The translations under genes and the position numbers were made by a program. Under the pieces are notes generated by a model. The model was given only the letters and a program-made list of their open reading frames with translations, was not told the origin of the DNA and made no database searches. From Candidatus Uhrbacteria bacterium (GTDB lineage: Bacteria; Patescibacteriota; Patescibacteriia; UBA9934; GWF2-40-263), in contig JACRJW010000075.1 in assembly GCA_016235605.1 (NCBI GenBank), positions 1-47,773 on the forward strand: a stretch of DNA of 47,773 nt, given 5' to 3'. Position 1 is the stretch's first letter; each line of letters begins with the position of its first letter. Below, piece by piece: positions 8,844 through 46,806 of the stretch.

Positions 8844-8851
8844 AGTGATGA

Positions 8852-8923
8852 GGTCGTAGGTTTTAGGTGGTAGGTGGTAGAAAAATATCCGAATGTGCTC
8901 CCTACAACCTACTCCCTACAACC
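8852..8923. repeat. type-B heptad-repeat imperfect palindrome between GT2 and murD
   Basis: C-less arm GGTCGTAGGTTTTAGGTGGTAGGTGGTAG pairs with G-less arm CTACAACCTACTCCCTACAACC (about 18-19 of 22 positions). Confidence 0.7.
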
Positions 8924-14338: not shown

Positions 14339-14414
14339 GGGTATTAGGTTGTAGGGAGTAGGTTATAGGGAGAAAATTTCTGCAAGCCTACAACCTAAAA
14401 CCTACAACCTACAA
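14339..14414. repeat. type-B heptad-repeat imperfect palindrome between ftsW and murG
   Basis: GGGTATTAGGTTGTAGGGAGTAGGTTATAGGGAG ... CCTACAACCTAAAACCTACAACCTACAA; the right arm overlaps the last ftsW codons. Confidence 0.7.
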
Positions 14415-15511: not shown

Positions 15512-15521
15512 GTCAGGGACA

Positions 15522-15640
15522 TCTCCCAAAACTCACGATCTTTGCTTTCACGGGCGCCCAGGCACCTCCTCAACGTACGTGTGTAGTACGTTTCGGAGGC
15601 TGCCAGCCCGTTCAAGCAAATCTCATTGAGTTTTGGGAGA
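15522..15640. repeat. about 120-nt rod-like hairpin element, copy 1
   Basis: Perfect 14-bp closing stem TCTCCCAAAACTCA/TGAGTTTTGGGAGA; the interior is near-identical to 43804-43894. Confidence 0.75.
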
Positions 15641-24961: not shown

Positions 24962-25092
24962 TGTCTGAAACCGGCGATCTGCTCGGGCTTCGGCTCACAA
25001 CAGCCTCACCGTACATCCGTGTACGGCTCGGCCGTTGATCGCCTCCAGCCCGTCGCATCTCATCCGGTTTCCAGCCATTCTTCTCCAGAAGT

Positions 25093-25122: not shown

Positions 25123-25124
25123 AT

Positions 25125-25167
25125 GGGAGCTAAGCTCCCGCGCCACGGAAGCTAGACTCCCGTAGAT
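25125..25167. repeat. 43-bp direct repeat, left copy
   Basis: GGGAGCTAAGCTCCCGCGCCACGGAAGCTAGACTCCCGTAGAT, identical to 26150-26192. Confidence 0.85.
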
Positions 25168-41667: not shown

Positions 41668-42570
41668 TTAGATGCTCAGAGCAATATGCTCGAGAGCTAA
41701 ATGAGGATTGATATTATGACGGGCCGCTTGGCGGGTTTCACAGAGGCGATTGAGAAAAGATACGAGAGGTGGACAGGTAGATGAGGTGGTGAGGAGAAGT
41801 TGACGGCGGGCGACGGTTTGGAGTTCTGTAATCACTTTCTGTAAACGAGAGGCACTGTTCACTTCACCTTTTGGAATGAACTCCATCACGAGACGCAGAC
41901 GCTCCGGCAAACTCGCGGCGAGAAATGCTTCTGCTTGCGCACGATCCGTTTCACGCACGGCTCGGTACGCACTATCTTTGAGGAACCGCAGAGCGAGTCC
42001 AGGCCGGCCTTCGCTGTGAAGCGCGGCTTCGTGTGCATCTGATTGACTGAACCCAGCGCAGATCAGTCCATCAACGATCGCCGTCTGCGCGACAACCGTG
42101 AAGCGCATCACCTGACAACGCGACGCAATGGTTGCAGGGACATCTTCAAGACTCGGCGCGCGCAGAATAAAAAGCGTCTGACCCTTGGGCTCCTCGAGCG
42201 TTTTCAAAAGCGCGTTCGCGCCGCCCATGGAGAGCTTGTGCGCTTCCTCGATGAAGATGACTTTGGTGTCGCCAGTAAACGATGTCATGGATAGTCGACC
42301 AACGAGATCACGCACCTGTCGCACCGAGATATTCGATTTGCGCTTGCCCGTCTTTTCATCATCGAGGCGCTTGAGCTCGAGATAGTCTGGCTGAGTCTCT
42401 AAATTTTGCACTCCCAGAACCTCACGACACAGAGCCTTTGCCACCATCGTCTTCCCGACGTGATCTGAACCGATAAAAAGCAGGGCATGAGGCAGGGATG
42501 TATGCGCGACCATCTTGCCAAGAACCTCTTTTGCCGGAGTGTGACCGATGATCGAAGAGAAGAGCTCCAT
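41668..42570 (-). CDS. holB: DNA polymerase III subunit delta' (HolB)
   Basis: AAA+ clamp-loader pattern HALLFIGSDHVGKT, IFIEEAHKLS, TLEEP; trimmed to ATG 42570 (MELFSS). Confidence 0.75.
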   Translation of the reverse strand: MELFSSIIGHTPAKEVLGKMVAHTSLPHALLFIGSDHVGKTMVAKALCREVLGVQNLETQPDYLELKRLDDEKTGKRKSNISVRQVRDLVGRLSMTSFTGDTKVIFIEEAHKLSMGGANALLKTLEEPKGQTLFILRAPSLEDVPATIASRCQVMRFTVVAQTAIVDGLICAGFSQSDAHEAALHSEGRPGLALRFLKDSAYRAVRETDRAQAEAFLAASLPERLRLVMEFIPKGEVNSASRLQKVITELQTVARRQLLLTTSSTCPPLVSFLNRLCETRQAARHNINPHLALEHIALSI

Positions 42571-42692
42571 ACGGACAATAGTATAGCACGCTGCCAAAAT
42601 GGCTCTGTGATGTCCAGCATAGTAAACAGATGTTTATCAGCTTATCTTAACTAATTTTAGATAAAATTCGGAAGCTTAGCTCCCGAAGAGTC

Positions 42693-42721
42693 TTGACAAA
42701 GTTGACAAAATATGATAGACT
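42693..42721 (+). promoter_or_regulatory. sigma70-like promoter of the accessory block
   Basis: TTGACA (42693-42698), 17-nt spacer, TAGACT (42716-42721); a GGAAGCTTAGCTCCCG box lies 7 bp upstream. Confidence 0.5.
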
Positions 42722-42758
42722 GCGCCCATACAAGATCACACAAAGCACCATACAAAAC

Positions 42759-42884
42759 AGAAACTTTTGAAAAAAGATGAGATGCGAAGTGCTGGAGGTG
42801 AGTAAAGGGCGAGGCGTAGGTAAATCCTACGGTGAGGTCTTTACGAACCGAAGCACGAGCAGATCGCTTTTTTCAAAAGTTTCT
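42759..42884 (+). ncRNA. 126-nt hairpin closed by a perfect 18-bp stem
   Basis: AGAAACTTTTGAAAAAAG/CTTTTTTCAAAAGTTTCT; inner helices GTAAAG/CTTTAC and CGTAGG-taaat-CCTACG. Confidence 0.55.
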
Positions 42885-42897
42885 AAACATTCTCTGG

Positions 42898-43418
42898 GGA
42901 GAGAGTACTAGGCCAAGTAAATGGCCATCAGGCAAAGGTGTTAGGTATTAGGTTATAGGTTGTAGCAAATAACTACATATCTACGATCTAAAGCCTAATA
43001 CCTAAAAGCCGGTTCCTGCATGTATCTCTCCTAACTCGATGCATTCAGCAACCGGTTTTTTGTCTGCCTACCACCTACAACCTAATACCTACTACCTGAT
43101 TTCTTCAGCCTCATGGAGGAGAGAGTACCCGTCCATCCAATGCTTCGGCAGAGGATGGCGGTGATCGCCAAATGGTCCGACTAGGCCTCGGCTTACTCGT
43201 TCCATATGCATGGCGATCACGAAGCATATTGTCCTTCGGGAGAATCACTGCTTCATCACTACCTCCAGTAGGTTGCAGGGATCATCCGATGCAGAAACTC
43301 GGAGGAGAGAGAAAAGGACCACCAAATGACTCGACTGGGTTTACTCACTCGATTCATACGCCCGGTGATCCTCGGCCTACACCAGCCCTCGGGCAGGTCA
43401 CTGGACCATTCTTCTCCG
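42898..43418 (+). ncRNA. three tandem GGAGAGAG-box structured units (unassigned RNA family)
   Basis: Unit 1 42898-43031, unit 2 43114-43267 (closing helix TGGAGG/CCTCCA around three hairpins, two capped by cUUCGg), unit 3 43300-43418; units 2 and 3 share collinear sequence blocks. Confidence 0.45.
43009..43062 (+). terminator. terminator-like hairpin plus T6 inside the leader (possible attenuator)
   Basis: CCGGTT..TGCAT..ATGCA..AACCGG followed by TTTTTTG; its loop contains the 3' strand (TATCTCTCC) of the unit-1 closing helix. Confidence 0.4.
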
Positions 43419-43489
43419 AATTCCTGTGTCGGACCAGAACCCACCGACCAGAACACCGGCAAGCCACAAACTTGCCAAAGGAAAATCAC

Positions 43490-43711
43490 ATGGATCATTC
43501 GATCCTCCTCCACCGTGCCCCGACTCCGTTCTTCTTCTGCACCGCCGACGAGGACCGCTTCCTGGCAACCGGCATCGCCAACTGCACCGGCACCGAGGTT
43601 CCCAGCGCGGCGCTTCGTCGCCGCTTCGGCGTCCCGGTCTACGTCGTCCCCCGCGGCACCAACCGCATCCCGCCCAGCGCCAACCAGGAGCTGGTGGCAG
43701 TCGCGAAGTGA
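43490..43711 (+). CDS. 73-aa hypothetical protein (first ORF of the GC-rich island)
   Basis: ATG 43490 preceded by AAGGAAA and by hairpin GGCAAG-ccacaaa-CTTGCC; GC3-rich from this point; the upstream part of ORF-track 43172..43711 is the structured leader. Confidence 0.45.
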   Translation: MDHSILLHRAPTPFFFCTADEDRFLATGIANCTGTEVPSAALRRRFGVPVYVVPRGTNRIPPSANQELVAVAK

Positions 43712-43788
43712 ACGGCTGACGCGACCGGGAACTCACGGTGAGGGTGTGCACAACACACTCTCACCGATCCCTCAAAGCACATCAGGAA

Positions 43789-43909
43789 CCTCTGCAAAAC
43801 TCGCGATCTTTGCTTTCACAGGCGCCCAGGCACCTCCTCAACGTACGTGTTTAGTACGTTTCGGAGGCTGCCAGCCCGTTCAAGCAAATCTCATCGAGTT
43901 TTGCAGAGG
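43789..43909. repeat. about 120-nt rod-like hairpin element, copy 2
   Basis: Closing stem CCTCTGCAAAACTCG/CGAGTTTTGCAGAGG; the interior differs from copy 1 at only 2 positions. Confidence 0.75.
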
Positions 43910-43950
43910 TTTGATCAATAACTGATGTCCTTCGAGGGATTACCAAACTC

Positions 43951-44133
43951 TATAGTCATCACACCATGAAAGAGGACTTTAGACGCCACGCCTGTAGATG
44001 GGATGCGCCGTCCTGGAGCGTGGAAAAACCGCAGAGGTATCCGTAGATACCTTGAGGATTTTTCCACGCGAAGGACAAGCAGACCGCCACGGGCGTGGAT
44101 GGATAAATCCTGTTTCATGGTGTGATGACTATA
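43951..44133. repeat. 183-nt rod-like element bounded by perfect 21-bp inverted repeats
   Basis: TATAGTCATCACACCATGAAA (43951-43971) and TTTCATGGTGTGATGACTATA (44113-44133); inner helices CCACGCC/GGCGTGG, GTCCT/AGGAC, CGTGGAAAAA/TTTTTCCACG, AGGTATC/GATACCT. Confidence 0.7.
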
Positions 44134-44269
44134 TTGACCTCCCAGTTCCTCTCGTCAAGGAATACATCTTCAAAAAACCCGGCCAGCTCAGCTGGCCATC
44201 TGGAGCGCTCGGGCTTGGCAGCCTGTGCACGACGAAACTCCAGAAAATTTCCTTAAGGAGGAAAACGCC

Positions 44270-44938
44270 ATGGGAACCAAAACACCAATCGTGATGCCCG
44301 ATCGCGCCGTTCCCCTGCCCGCGCCAGCCCGCAAGTCCAAGAAGCCCGCCAGCCCCCCGACCATCCACCAGGTCGCGGAGTCGGCCAAGCGCTTCTGCAA
44401 GGAGATGAGTCTCGGGGACGCGTTCGTGGCACCGCTCTTCGCCTTCGCGGTCAGTTCGGTCCATACGGCGCAGAGCCTTGTGCGCTTCGCGGTCGCGGCC
44501 GTCCGTGCCGAGCAGGGGCGCAGCAAGCTCCGCGGCGACCGCCACGAAATCGTGAATGCCTTCAAGGACTACCTCGAGAAGAACCGCCAGTACGACTTCA
44601 GGGCTCCCAAGCAGGAGCAGGAGGCTCGCAACCTTCTGCTGCGTGGGATCGAGCAGGGCGAGTTCCTTCGCCGCGGCCCCGCCGTGACCGAGGTGATCCT
44701 CGCGTGGACCATCCCGGCGTTCGACGCGGTGGAGGTGTCCGACTTCGCGCAGATCGATCTCCCCAACATGATCAGGGGGAACCTCCGTCTGGCGGAGTGG
44801 CTCCTCCAGAACGCGCTCAAGGACACGCCGGAGCAGAAGGCGCTCTCCGAGTTCACCGCGGCGTACGAGGCCGCCAAGGCGAAGGACGAGGAGTCCGAAG
44901 AGGACGCCGGGGACGAGGACGAACAGGCAGCGAGCTAG
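44270..44938 (+). CDS. 222-aa hypothetical protein with acidic C-terminal tail (island ORF2)
   Basis: AAGGAGG then 7-nt spacer then ATG 44270; very strong G/C at third positions; no family recognised. Confidence 0.65.
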   Translation: MGTKTPIVMPDRAVPLPAPARKSKKPASPPTIHQVAESAKRFCKEMSLGDAFVAPLFAFAVSSVHTAQSLVRFAVAAVRAEQGRSKLRGDRHEIVNAFKDYLEKNRQYDFRAPKQEQEARNLLLRGIEQGEFLRRGPAVTEVILAWTIPAFDAVEVSDFAQIDLPNMIRGNLRLAEWLLQNALKDTPEQKALSEFTAAYEAAKAKDEESEEDAGDEDEQAAS

Positions 44939-44962
44939 CCATGAACGGCTAGCGACCACACG

Positions 44963-45044
44963 GGGCGAGACGACTCTGTACGAGAGTCGTCTCGCCCAGC
45001 CCTAAGAGATCATGAGGCAAGCCTCGTGAACTGCTAGGGCTTCA
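44963..45044 (+). repeat. 82-nt double-hairpin 3' module, copy A
   Basis: 15-bp hairpin GGGCGAGACGACTCT-gtacg-AGAGTCGTCTCGCCC, then CCCTA..CATGAGG-caag-CCTCGTG..TAGGG. Confidence 0.75.
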
Positions 45045-45107
45045 ACCTTCTGCGCCTTGCCCAAGGCAACTGTTTTTTCCACCAATCACTACAACCAGGA
45101 GTCCCCA

Positions 45108-46259
45108 ATGCGCGAATTGACCTTCGCCGACAACGGCACCGTCGCCCCTGGCGACGAGAACGCTCCCGACCTCTGGGAGCTCGCCCTGGACAATCTCGAC
45201 ATCGAAGTCGAAACCCGCCCCTGGCGCGAGATGGACGAGTTCGAGGCCCCGGAGCAGATCTGGGACGAGACGAACGCGCTCGCGCAGGCCGAGGCGGAAG
45301 CCGAGGCCGACAAGTACAAGTTCGACGACGAGACTGACGAGATCGGCGAGGCGATCTACACCGGTGGCTACGACTACCACCGCCCCCGCGATCGCTTCGA
45401 CGATCAGGCCGACGAGCTCAAGATCCAGAACCACACGCTCGTGCGCAAGTACAGGTTCAAGGTGACGGATATCCTGGGAGTCAACGGACAGCTCCTCGGA
45501 GTCGACTACCTCGCTGTGGTGCTCGCCGCGTGCAAGGCGGCCGACGAGATCGCGGATCTCGCCGGCAACGGTGAGGTCTGCAGGGTCATCGCGCAGGCCA
45601 GCGGCTGGAAGGGCGAACTCCCCACGAGGCTCTCGGGCTTCGGGGTGGAAACGTTCTACCGCAGTGCGGGTGCCCTCCAGACCCGTGTCGCCGAGATCAA
45701 GGCCCGCAAGCCGAAGCACAGCGTCATCGTGATGCCCGACCGTCGCGTCGTAGAGCCCGTCCCCTCGCAGACCCCGAGCCGGTCGAAGGGCGCGCCGGTG
45801 ATCCTCGTGGTCCCGACGCAGAAGCCCGAGGGGAGCGACCTCTTCGGTCGGGTGAAAACCCCATCGGGTCTGGCGTTCCGGTGCGTGTGCGGCTGCGGCA
45901 ATCTCGTTCTCGAGAAAGTCGCCGTCGTACCGCCCACCAGTGCGATGCGCGACCGGCAGAACGGCGGCCGCGTGGGATCGAAAGATCTCTGGCGCCACGC
46001 GTTCGGCGAGCGGTGCATCCGTCGGTTCGGCCGCGGATTCTCCCTCAAGGAGAAGATGAACAAGATGATGGACGAAGAGTCCAAGCGCGAGGCCGCGAAC
46101 CGAACCCTGCGTCCGCGCTTCGGGGACGTCATCGGCCACGGTGGCGCCTTCGGCGGATCGGGCAAGGGCCCCACGCCGGGCCAACTCTCCCACCAGGCCG
46201 CACGGGCGGAGGCCGACCGCCAGCTGCGTCTCAAGATGCAGTCGGCGGGCAGGAAGTAG
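45108..46259 (+). CDS. 383-aa hypothetical protein: acidic N-region, CxCxC cluster, basic C-region (island ORF3)
   Basis: AGGAG then 6-nt spacer then ATG 45108; GC3-rich; shares an IVMPDRxV..P.P segment with ORF2. Confidence 0.65.
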   Translation: MRELTFADNGTVAPGDENAPDLWELALDNLDIEVETRPWREMDEFEAPEQIWDETNALAQAEAEAEADKYKFDDETDEIGEAIYTGGYDYHRPRDRFDDQADELKIQNHTLVRKYRFKVTDILGVNGQLLGVDYLAVVLAACKAADEIADLAGNGEVCRVIAQASGWKGELPTRLSGFGVETFYRSAGALQTRVAEIKARKPKHSVIVMPDRRVVEPVPSQTPSRSKGAPVILVVPTQKPEGSDLFGRVKTPSGLAFRCVCGCGNLVLEKVAVVPPTSAMRDRQNGGRVGSKDLWRHAFGERCIRRFGRGFSLKEKMNKMMDEESKREAANRTLRPRFGDVIGHGGAFGGSGKGPTPGQLSHQAARAEADRQLRLKMQSAGRK

Positions 46260-46301
46260 ATCCACGCGATCTACACGGCCAGCTCAACTGGCCACGGACG
46301 A

Positions 46302-46381
46302 GGGCGAGCGATTCTGTACGAGAATCGTTCGCCCGACCCTAAGAATCCATGAGGCACGCCTCGTGAACTGCTAGGGTTTCA
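46302..46381 (+). repeat. 82-nt double-hairpin 3' module, copy B
   Basis: GGGCGAGCGATTCT-gtacg-AGAATCGTTCGCCC, then CCCTA..CATGAGG-cacg-CCTCGTG..TAGGG; collinear with copy A. Confidence 0.75.
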
Positions 46382-46408
46382 TACCCAAACTCTCTCCCAA
46401 GGAGAAGC

Positions 46409-46447
46409 AAAAAACCGTCCTGAGTTTATCGAAGGGCGGTTTTTTGT
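46409..46447. terminator. bidirectional-type terminator closing the island
   Basis: AAAAA-ACCGTCC-13 nt-GGGCGGT-TTTTTTG. Confidence 0.55.
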
Positions 46448-46473
46448 TTGCCAATATCCTACAACACGACCGC

Positions 46474-46502
46474 TTGACGGACTCCCTGGGGGGTGTTAAT
46501 CT
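46474..46502 (+). promoter_or_regulatory. sigma70-like promoter
   Basis: TTGACG, 17-nt spacer, TAATCT. Confidence 0.45.
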
Positions 46503-46565
46503 GCTTTATCGTTTCTGTGGTGGAAACGTTTCATTGCCTAACCGGCAAGGAGTGAGGAGGATCTG

Positions 46566-46721
46566 ATGGAAAGGAAAAGAGAGAGTCCTTTCGACGCCAT
46601 CGCTTTGCTCCACGAGTACGCAACTCGCTGGGCTCTGCGACTTGTACAAGGTCGGCAACATCTCGTGGATGCAGATCCACGGAGGTTCCAACCAACCTAC
46701 ATTTGCGACGGCGGCGGCTGA
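46566..46721 (+). CDS. 51-aa hypothetical peptide
   Basis: GAGGAGG then 5-nt spacer then ATG; MERKRESPFDAIALLHEYATRWALRLVQGRQHLVDADPRRFQPTYICDGGG; own promoter and terminator; below the ORF-track cutoff. Confidence 0.4.
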   Translation: MERKRESPFDAIALLHEYATRWALRLVQGRQHLVDADPRRFQPTYICDGGG

Positions 46722-46776
46722 CGACCTTTCCCTCTTTTCTCTCCTGAATTCCTCACCACAGACCTGACCACGACGA

Positions 46777-46806
46777 ACGGATCGCACGCGATCCGTATTA
46801 TTTTTG
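46777..46806. terminator. hairpin plus T-run between the convergent small ORF and trmB
   Basis: ACGGATC-gcacgc-GATCCGT followed by ATTATTTTTGG. Confidence 0.5.

Follow-up and report, generated by a model that had tools for sequence, protein, structure and literature searches.

A predicted RNA leader with a repeated three-way-junction domain in a lineage-specific operon of Uhrbacteria-like Patescibacteria

A stretch of 47,773 nt from a Candidatus Uhrbacteria bacterium (contig JACRJW010000075.1; the whole stretch is referred to below as the window) carries, between holB and a gene for a trmB-like regulator, a promoter followed by about 770 nt (to position 43489) that are poor in open reading frames (ORFs). 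Comparison with related loci confirms, at the level of sequence, that this region is a real, non-coding and heavily folded RNA leader of a lineage-specific operon. At its core are two copies of one domain, here called units 2 and 3, which very probably represent a genuine structured RNA family that had not been catalogued previously. They are preceded by unit 1, which probably is a functional terminator. The RNA-led operon appears to be confined to one group of ultrasmall groundwater bacteria, the Uhrbacteria-like Patescibacteria. The promoter, a 126-nt hairpin, the helices of units 1 to 3 and their tetraloops were all found where a first-pass annotation, made from the letters alone, had placed them.

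The three-way-junction domain

Units 2 and 3 lie as follows.

43105..43278, + strand: unit 2, a domain copy with an extra P2 hairpin; stems P0 and P1 (CAGCCTCATGGAGG / CCTCCAGTAGGTTG)
43286..43432, + strand: unit 3, a second copy in minimal form; closing stem of about 24 bp (CCGATGCAGAAACTCGGAGGAGAG / TTCTTCTCCGAATTCCTGTGTCGG)

A holB query retrieved three related genomes (two labelled Candidatus Uhrbacteria; holB identity 74-82%), and the intergenic region is syntenic and alignable in all three. An alignment of both units from the four genomes (eight sequences) gives a consensus three-way junction with compensatory changes in 21 of 38 pairs. The first covariance model (R1) finds exactly two copies in each of the four genomes, at 131-175 bits on the + strand and at no more than 28 bits on the reverse strand. 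A pattern made from the positions common to units 2 and 3 retrieved 20 metagenome contigs, so that 23 distinct copies of the domain, 140-175 nt in length, are now at hand from 4 genomes and 20 contigs; over all loci the + strand matches range from 54 to 175 bits, with reverse-strand matches again at 28 bits or less. The homologous sequences belong to a single lineage throughout, and many are metagenome fragments; related contigs stem from groundwater, for example at Rifle or Hainich. Unit 2 scores 163.8 bits with R1 and 146.3 bits with a second model (R2) built from all 23 copies (reverse strand, 24 bits at most), and unit 3 scores 131.5 and 140.1 bits. Run over the window and all loci, R1 and R2 detected no copies beyond the one or two per locus.

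The search for homologues and the covariation check, both of which had been proposed with the first-pass annotation, came out in favour of a conserved fold. In the alignment of 23 copies 95.7% of pair cells are paired and 27 of the 38 pairs show both-sided changes; this alignment was fitted to the model, which favours structure, and a model-free MAFFT alignment gave identical helices. The covariation score is 0.544 against 0.205 in shuffles, none of 500 shuffles reaches it, and pairing falls to 31-44% when partners are slid by 1-3 columns. The strand of the domain is fixed by one G.U pair that is invariant in all 23 copies.

In the consensus, P1 (GGAGG/CCUCC) is followed by a joining strand AGAGAG(UA) and an optional P2 hairpin. 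An AA / AYRCNN internal loop and a conserved C.C mismatch interrupt the long arm (P3-P4-P5-P6), and the short arm (P7-P8) has a 1x3 loop (YACACC / GGUCAMUG). Invariant nucleotides are found in the junction and internal loops, namely GGAGGAGAGAG, AA-RUGG, the C.C mismatch and YACACC/GGUCAMUG, with the further conserved blocks ACU..GG, CU.ACU and UCAMUG beside GGAGGAGAGAG. The terminal loops are all variable or stable tetraloops, so that conservation is limited to the junction and the internal loops. P0 extends the closing helix by about 13 pairs beyond P1 (74% paired in register, with many pair types, against 38-46% when shifted), giving a closing stem of about 20 bp in 20 of the 23 copies. In unit 2 the helix TGGAGG/CCTCCA closes around three hairpins, with cTTCGg tetraloops at 43143-43148 and 43234-43239; unit 3 is closed by CGGAG/CTCCG, and its closing-stem duplex is predicted at -25.7 kcal/mol (z = -5.8).

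The collinear blocks shared by units 2 and 3 had been taken as a sign of tandem duplication. They do belong to one strongly covarying domain, and the paralogy of the two units stands; the duplication, however, is ancient rather than recent: a gene of 204-214 aa separates units 2 and 3 in two of the related loci (L001 and L002; L numbers denote related loci).

Searches against known RNAs agree with the inability of the first-pass annotation to place the region among RNase P, transfer-messenger RNA (tmRNA), signal recognition particle (SRP) RNA, T-box, glycine or yybP elements. Rfam 15 at gathering thresholds reports only 7 tRNAs in the whole window. At E <= 10 over 42500-44100 the only matches are miRNA-like, the best at 27 bits against a gathering threshold of 79, and all fall on an AT-rich hairpin inserted in unit 1. 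A tmRNA/tRNA scan of the window found no tmRNA and the 7 tRNAs, all elsewhere. By these comparisons the region falls outside every named family testable here, and no description of the element was found in the literature on RNA motifs of Patescibacteria, Uhrbacteria or Parcubacteria. Variants of SRP, 6S and RNase P RNA were dropped for lack of any model match. Also dropped were a type III toxin-antitoxin RNA (the units are divergent paralogues of 140-175 nt, the terminator precedes them, and there is no toxin or defence family) and a retron or other reverse-transcriptase RNA (a gene for the enzyme is lacking).

The + strand of 42725-43495 folds at -311.1 kcal/mol against -213.5 +/- 7.7 in shuffles (z = -12.6; - strand, z = -7.6), in line with the strong structure ascribed to it. 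What did not hold is the view of a single leader composed of four elements: relatives lack both the 126-nt perfect-stem hairpin and the AT-rich one of unit 1, and about 200 nt of the 770 are insertions private to this genome. The conserved parts are the promoter block and units 1, 2 and 3. Because the hairpin insertions are genome-specific and a gene stands between units 2 and 3 in L001 and L002, the leader would be better described as a string of independent modules than as a single RNA unit.

Promoter, unit 1 and the complementary 3' box

The elements at the two ends of the proposed transcript are the following.

42693..42721, + strand: sigma-70-type promoter with a duplicated -35 box TTGACAAAGTTGACA, extended TG and -10 box TAGACT (10/12 match)
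42726..42739, + strand: conserved leader start CCATACAAGATCAC, found after the -10 box of 7 related loci as well
42890..42906, + strand: unit 1 purine box GGGGAGAGAGT with 5' flank TTCTCT; a small hairpin (UCUCU / AGAGA) is possible
42911..42926, + strand: unit 1 small hairpin GGCCA-AGTAAA-TGGCC, kept in the window, L001, L002, L003 and L008
43008..43061, + strand: unit 1 intrinsic terminator (hairpin 43008-43056, T6 at 43056-43061), with apex TATCTCTCC complementary to the purine box
46389..46398, + strand: 3' pyrimidine box ACTCTCTCCC, exact reverse complement of GGGAGAGAGT in unit 1
46415..46445, + strand: terminal intrinsic terminator, CCGTCC...GGGCGG then T6

The TTGACA-N17-TAGACT promoter with its upstream TG is the sole sigma-70-like site in 42300-44200. 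The block TCTTGACARAGTTGACAAAAnnTGrTAkAnT, followed by CCAUACAAGAUCAC, is kept in eight lineages (window, L001, L002, L003, L007, L008, L014 and L018), which strengthens the description of the leader as promoter-driven; TTGACAnnnTTGACA of the promoter occurs only once within the window. Just 5' of the promoter are a palindrome, CTAATTTTAG (42651-42660; CTAAWTTTAG in most relatives), and a GGAAGCTTAGCTCCC hairpin (42667-42687), with a similar GGGAGCTTAGCTCCC hairpin at about 25124-25138. The palindrome and the hairpin at 42667-42687 may be operators, for instance of the adjacent trmB-like regulator.

Unit 1 combines a purine box with a terminator whose loop is complementary to it (GGAGAGAGTA at 42898; TATCTCTCC at 43023-43031), an arrangement that had been noticed in this genome and proves to be conserved in nine lineages. 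The GGGGAGAGAG box is invariant in all nine, usually after UCUCU, and the consensus fold of unit 1 includes the small UCUCU / AGAGA hairpin. The terminator hairpin has a predicted energy of -24.2 kcal/mol here and of -24 to -36 across the nine lineages, and it is followed by a U-run (U4-U6) in 9/9. Its apex is pyrimidine-rich and complementary to the purine box, also in 9/9 (-11 to -18.5 kcal/mol, z = -1.4 to -3.9). Compensatory changes affect 13 of 32 predicted pairs of the unit 1 consensus, pairs of the terminator stem among them. The small GGCCA-AGTAAA-TGGCC hairpin is replaced by another hairpin in L007, L014, L018 and L023.

Unit 2 begins only 5-45 nt past the U-run of unit 1. A promoter would not fit into this gap; transcription of units 2 and 3 and of the genes would therefore depend solely on read-through, and unit 1 would act as an attenuator. 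It resembles the known intrinsic-terminator attenuators in having a stable, GC-rich hairpin and U-run on the transcribed strand, between the promoter and the genes, and an upstream segment complementary to part of the terminator. It differs from them in that the upstream segment targets the apical loop, in pseudoknot-like fashion, rather than the 5' stem, and in that no leader peptide, T-box or recognisable binding motif for a known attenuation protein is found in unit 1. Pairing between box and apex would leave the lower terminator stem intact, and no classical antiterminator is evident. In structural terms the predicted pairing would be a loop-to-5' pseudoknot instead of a classical antiterminator.

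Unit 1 had also been counted as the first of three tandem units sharing one box. A purine box is indeed common to all three: GGAGAGAG octamers stand at 42898, 43118 and 43304, three of the seven found in the window, where 1.85 are expected. As a third copy of the domain, however, unit 1 is rejected; it scores 12.4 bits with R2 (E = 0.21), and only the purine box is shared.

About 3.5 kb downstream, directly 5' of the terminal terminator, ACUCUCUCCC (46389-46398) is the exact complement of GGGAGAGAGU in unit 1. The match to 42897-42906 is perfect over 10 nt, and over 11 nt in L007. This 3' box, conserved in eight lineages, occupies the same position in the window, L001/L016, L002, L003, L014, L007 and L020, and L005, L006 and L021 carry a variant of it. 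Together with their flanks the 5' and 3' elements could form a duplex of 16-17 bp (-18 to -27 kcal/mol, z = -4.1 to -6.9) in seven lineages. The terminal terminator itself has hairpin-plus-T-run equivalents in all relatives; a simple terminator scan omitted 46415-46445, its loop being longer than 8 nt. The pair of complementary 5' and 3' boxes is a new observation.

The nearest known case is the icaR mRNA of S. aureus, in which the Shine-Dalgarno region at the 5' end is bound by a UCCCC box of the 3' untranslated region (UTR), whereby RNase III is recruited (PMC3868564). In both systems a conserved C/U-rich 3'-UTR box beside the terminator has its complement in a purine-rich, Shine-Dalgarno-like box of the 5' leader, and the duplex predicted here is long enough for an RNase III substrate. 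The 5' partner, however, is here an attenuator box about 0.6 kb (~590 nt) before the first start codon at 43490 and not the ribosome-binding site (RBS) of the regulated ORF; moreover, the transcript is a 3.7-kb operon, for which pairing and cleavage are predicted only.

Possible roles of the leader

The reading favoured here, to which slightly less than an even chance is given, is that of a cis-acting leader in which unit 1 attenuates transcription and the domains exert cistron-specific control or processing, the likeliest partner being a protein encoded by the operon. The conserved promoter would start a + strand transcript, whose entry into the operon would be limited by the unit 1 terminator, so that downstream parts would be reached by read-through. 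Units 2 and 3 would be constitutively folded binding modules, most probably for an operon-encoded protein and less probably for a small ligand, and would govern how stable the cistron behind each of them is, or how it is processed or translated, with the long closing stems as plausible entry sites for RNase III. All three units carry a purine box at their 5' edge, and pyrimidine counterparts to these boxes lie in the apex of the unit 1 terminator, in the closing stems (3' strands) and in ACUCUCUCCC before the final terminator; competition among these pairings might couple read-through at unit 1 to completion of the transcript, including an icaR-like interaction of the 5' and 3' ends. Read-through, processing and contact between the ends are what we infer from the sequences. 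Leaders of ribosomal-protein operons offer a parallel, since they too have conserved structures just 5' of cistrons, repeated within an operon and conserved in the manner of protein-binding sites; here, in contrast, the proteins are uncharacterised and lineage-restricted, and the partner protein is putative.

Several findings weigh against such a cis-acting leader. No sequestration of an RBS by unit 2 or unit 3 is visible. In L004 an intrinsic terminator lies about 35 nt past the domain, and in L005, L006 and L021 some 170 nt free of ORFs separate the domain from the terminal terminator; a free-standing RNA would account for both arrangements at least as well as a 5'-UTR element would. Family searches recognised no RNA-binding or other domain in the operon proteins, and the AlphaFold2 model of the largest of them, the 400-aa family, is poor (mean predicted local distance difference test score, pLDDT, 56.7) and too weak to interpret. 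The purine and pyrimidine boxes are of low complexity and nearly invariant, so that little covariation stands behind their complementarity; for this reason the pairing of the 5' and 3' boxes can only be proposed, and their complementarity could reflect something other than pairing.

The same arrangements of L004, L005, L006 and L021 count in favour of units 2 and 3 as stable trans-acting or scaffold RNAs, cut out by RNase III at their closing stems and assembled with operon proteins into a ribonucleoprotein, with no regulation of the neighbouring genes. This is unlikely but a serious alternative. Closing stems of about 20 bp, unlike the short and switchable P1 of riboswitches, resemble the processing stalks of rRNA and phage T7. 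The stems of rRNA operons and the intercistronic R sites of T7 are likewise long and imperfect and either bracket a structured RNA or separate cistrons, whereas the known stalks enclose no conserved three-way junction with invariant loop nucleotides, and cleavage of the stems described here is a prediction. Variable or tetraloop hairpin ends combined with an invariant junction and invariant internal loops would also suit such an RNA, as would the co-occurrence of the domain with a tiny, lineage-restricted protein family (the 400-aa family, with 7 members among 5.8 billion proteins). It is less easily reconciled with the lineages bearing unit 1, where the domains stand regularly 30-80 nt before start codons, or with operon proteins in which no RNA-binding domain is detectable.

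Rather improbable is a further possibility, a new class of riboswitch that senses a metabolite or ion: units 2 and 3 would be its tandem aptamers and control the genes downstream, and unit 1 would add a gate at the level of transcription. The fold has the pattern typical of aptamers, with covarying variable stems around invariant junction and internal-loop nucleotides, the domains lie in 5' UTRs, and the L004 terminator stands close behind its domain. Two copies per locus recall the tandem glycine (RF00504) and THF-I (RF01831) riboswitches, which also place two homologous domains serially in a 5' leader and share the GGAGAG-type 5' strand, the three-way junction and invariant junction nucleotides. 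The differences are considerable, however: riboswitch models of Rfam give no match here even at E <= 10, a gene lies between the copies in some genomes, and no metabolic or transport function from which a ligand might be guessed is annotated for the associated genes. A closing helix of about 20 bp is implausible as a ligand-switched P1, no terminator or RBS overlaps its 3' strand as an expression platform in most loci, and the sole conserved terminator is upstream of the domains.

Operon genes, inserted elements and chromosomal setting

Downstream of the leader the operon contains the following features.

43490..43711, + strand: small ORF of 73 aa with RBS AAGGAA, 58 nt past unit 3
44225..44938: ORF of the 223-237-aa product
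44963..45044, + strand: intercistronic double hairpin, copy 1, 87% identical to copy 2
45057..46259: ORF of the 383-400-aa product
46302..46381, + strand: intercistronic double hairpin, copy 2, after the 400-aa ORF

Behind a domain copy, the window, L001, L002, L003, L007, L008, L014 and L018 each have an ORF of 46-73 aa that contains D-x-[DE]-R-[FW]-L-x-[TG]-G..[CA]TG as a shared motif, and a protein of about 204-214 aa follows unit 2 in L001, L002 and L009. In lineages bearing unit 1 the ORFs after units 2 and 3 start 30-80 nt downstream, and their products are small or uncharacterised. The double hairpin stands after each of the two larger ORFs and has homologues in L001 (3 copies), L002, L003 and L014. 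The larger ORFs are fast-evolving and GC-rich (63% against about 53% for the surrounding genome; over 43400-46400, GC is 56-65% against about 53% in the rest of the window). Codon periodicity is weak in the 400-aa ORF (0.23/0.21/0.33) and absent from the 237-aa ORF over about 105 aligned sites per codon position.

Pfam, PHROGs, NCBIfam and PADLOC assign no families to the operon proteins, apart from a marginal MotA-like match in L004. Homologue searches with the 73-aa and 223-aa proteins retrieved only themselves, exact-protein look-up of the 73-aa ORF and of holB returned no record, and the 400-aa family, with its conserved C-x-C-G-C...W-R-H...C block, gave no significant match by Foldseek against PDB or in a hidden Markov model search of PDB sequences. 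The operon proteins thus seem to be essentially without relatives outside the lineage. Since the structure and homology searches of these proteins came up empty, the role of the RNA cannot be read from its neighbours.

Past the operon terminator there is a possible second small transcription unit (46470-46796) with a 51-aa ORF (46566-46721), versions of which in relatives carry VDEDPRRFCPCYICPGG. Purine- and pyrimidine-rich tracts flank this ORF, the downstream tract CTCTTTTCTCTCCTGAATTCCT resembling the 3' strand of unit 3, and the unit ends in a terminator at 46777-46796.

Three inserted or variable elements lie within the leader.

42759..42884, + strand: 126-nt hairpin, an insertion closed by a perfect 18-bp inverted repeat (42759-42776 / 42867-42884)
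42936..43005, + strand: AT-rich (TAGGT)n hairpin, a genome-specific insertion into the variable linker of unit 1
43068..43097, + strand: CTACC-rich pyrimidine tract, complementary to the 5' arm of the AT-rich hairpin (30 nt, 87%)

The 126-nt hairpin is missing from every related locus; in these, ...ACAAC is joined to TAAACA... without interruption. A single paralogue of the hairpin core lies in the window (24966-25064, - strand, 75% identity), with a different yet complementary outer stem; compensatory changes are kept. The paralogue lies antisense to the local transcript in the 3' UTR of a gene for an RRM-type RNA-binding protein, between stop codon and terminator, and has no Rfam match. No further copies were found in related loci or viral contigs. 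Because no relative has the hairpin and the paralogue exists, it would seem to be a separate repeated element that landed in this leader. It might be a miniature inverted-repeat transposable element (MITE): its inverted repeat is perfect, and AAAC stands on both flanks, which may be a target-site duplication; the outer stem of its sole paralogue, however, is different. The AT-rich hairpin, missing in L001, L002, L003, L007 and L008, belongs to a dispersed GTAGG/CCTAC repeat found also at 8848-8880 and 14340-14414, and like the 126-nt hairpin it is apparently a passenger. The CTACC tract is present in the window and L001 only. Dispersed intergenic hairpins of the (GGTWGTAG)n / (CTACWACC)n type occur at 8848-8905, 14340-14414, 42936-43005 and 43068-43097, and L001 has a related CTACTTCCTAATTC tandem array 5' of its unit 3, with a run of Ns from an assembly gap within it.

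Two long imperfect palindromes of about 180 nt each (43767-43940 and 43951-44133) occupy the stretch without ORFs that separates the 73-aa from the 237-aa ORF. A 123-nt long-hairpin element occurs twice in the window (43782-43903 and 15513-15635, 93% identical). The copy at 15513 has an orthologue in L003 (13419-13541), and the copy at 43782, within the non-coding stretch of the operon, looks like a recent insertion.

Outside the operon, the flanking genes are frr, a BNR-repeat protein gene and holB (leftward) and, further right, the trmB-family regulator (leftward). The order holB, RNA locus, trmB is kept down to about 34% holB identity in contigs with enough flank. Given this shared neighbourhood, the locus is of old standing on the chromosome and has been passed on vertically in this lineage of Patescibacteria. 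L004, on a contig of 9.2 kb, departs from the pattern: tblastn detects no protein of the window there. A phage origin was dropped: a phage DNA similarity search gave no match, nor did viral-contig pattern scans for the three-way-junction domain and for the core of the 126-nt hairpin. On the - strand, holB has an apparent conserved extended -10 box TGCTATACT (42570-42600) only about 9 nt before its ATG, which suggests that its mRNA is leaderless or nearly so. L001 (CAYHRJ010000007.1) is titled 'uncultured Gammaproteobacteria bacterium', yet it is syntenic with the window and its proteins are 80-93% identical; the title is probably a taxonomic mislabel of a metagenome-assembled genome.

The insertions described above, together with the high GC content of the operon and a 17-nt imperfect inverted repeat that brackets it (TTCTCTGGGGAGAGAGT ... 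ACTCTCTCCCAAGGAGAA), are what might be cited for a mosaic of mobile DNA, in which the operon would be a cassette between terminal inverted repeats, the hairpins MITE-like, and the RNA structure a by-product. The 126-nt hairpin, the AT-rich hairpin and the 43782-43903 element are indeed genome-specific insertions with paralogues in the window. The idea is nonetheless very improbable for the region as a whole: the locus is single-copy and at the same chromosomal site in all lineages, to the limit of holB identity given above; the supposed inverted repeats enclose neither the promoter nor the terminal terminator; family scans detected no transposase, integrase or phage family, and viral contigs gave no match; and units 2 and 3 show compensatory substitutions that only selection on RNA pairing would produce. 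It is largely refuted for the conserved modules and holds only for the inserted hairpins.

That the region encodes protein, as mechanical ORFs overlapping units 2 and 3 might suggest (179 aa, 43172-43711; 199 aa, 43326-43925), is refuted by their flat codon-position mismatch (0.16/0.19/0.17 and 0.18/0.15/0.14), by the absence of any family match and by substitutions that preserve RNA pairs, not codons. Over units 2 and 3 themselves the mismatch is also flat (0.19/0.19/0.19), with many 1-2-nt indels among orthologues, whereas the third position stands out in holB (0.46/0.09/0.14) and trmB (0.51/0.10/0.20), where the wobble position is the one at 0.46-0.51. The leader region is accordingly non-coding, in line with the first-pass annotation.

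To our knowledge, Patescibacteria are uncultivated and have few recognisable regulators, and the literature searched contains no published structured RNA motif specific to this group (CPR). What is new here is an RNA fold without Rfam match in a known kind of setting, a structured regulatory leader. The locus combines an unusually well-supported fold, two copies per locus, an attenuator and complementary 5' and 3' boxes, and the genes behind these elements have no known relatives in other lineages. The motif can be submitted as a new RNA family even while it is an orphan, with a seed alignment of 23 sequences and a consensus structure at hand. A more far-reaching and doubtful proposal is that the three-way-junction domain is a sensory RNA class exclusive to Patescibacteria, either a riboswitch or a sensor of a dedicated protein, working with an attenuator whose loop, 5' box and 3'-UTR box form competing pairings, possibly as a pseudoknot or triplex. 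Were this so, the lineage would possess a self-contained RNA regulatory circuit at one chromosomal site. An RNA that senses a ligand or protein would give the first handle on the role of this conserved, fast-evolving and GC-rich operon, and could serve as a native regulatory part for genetic tools in these organisms.

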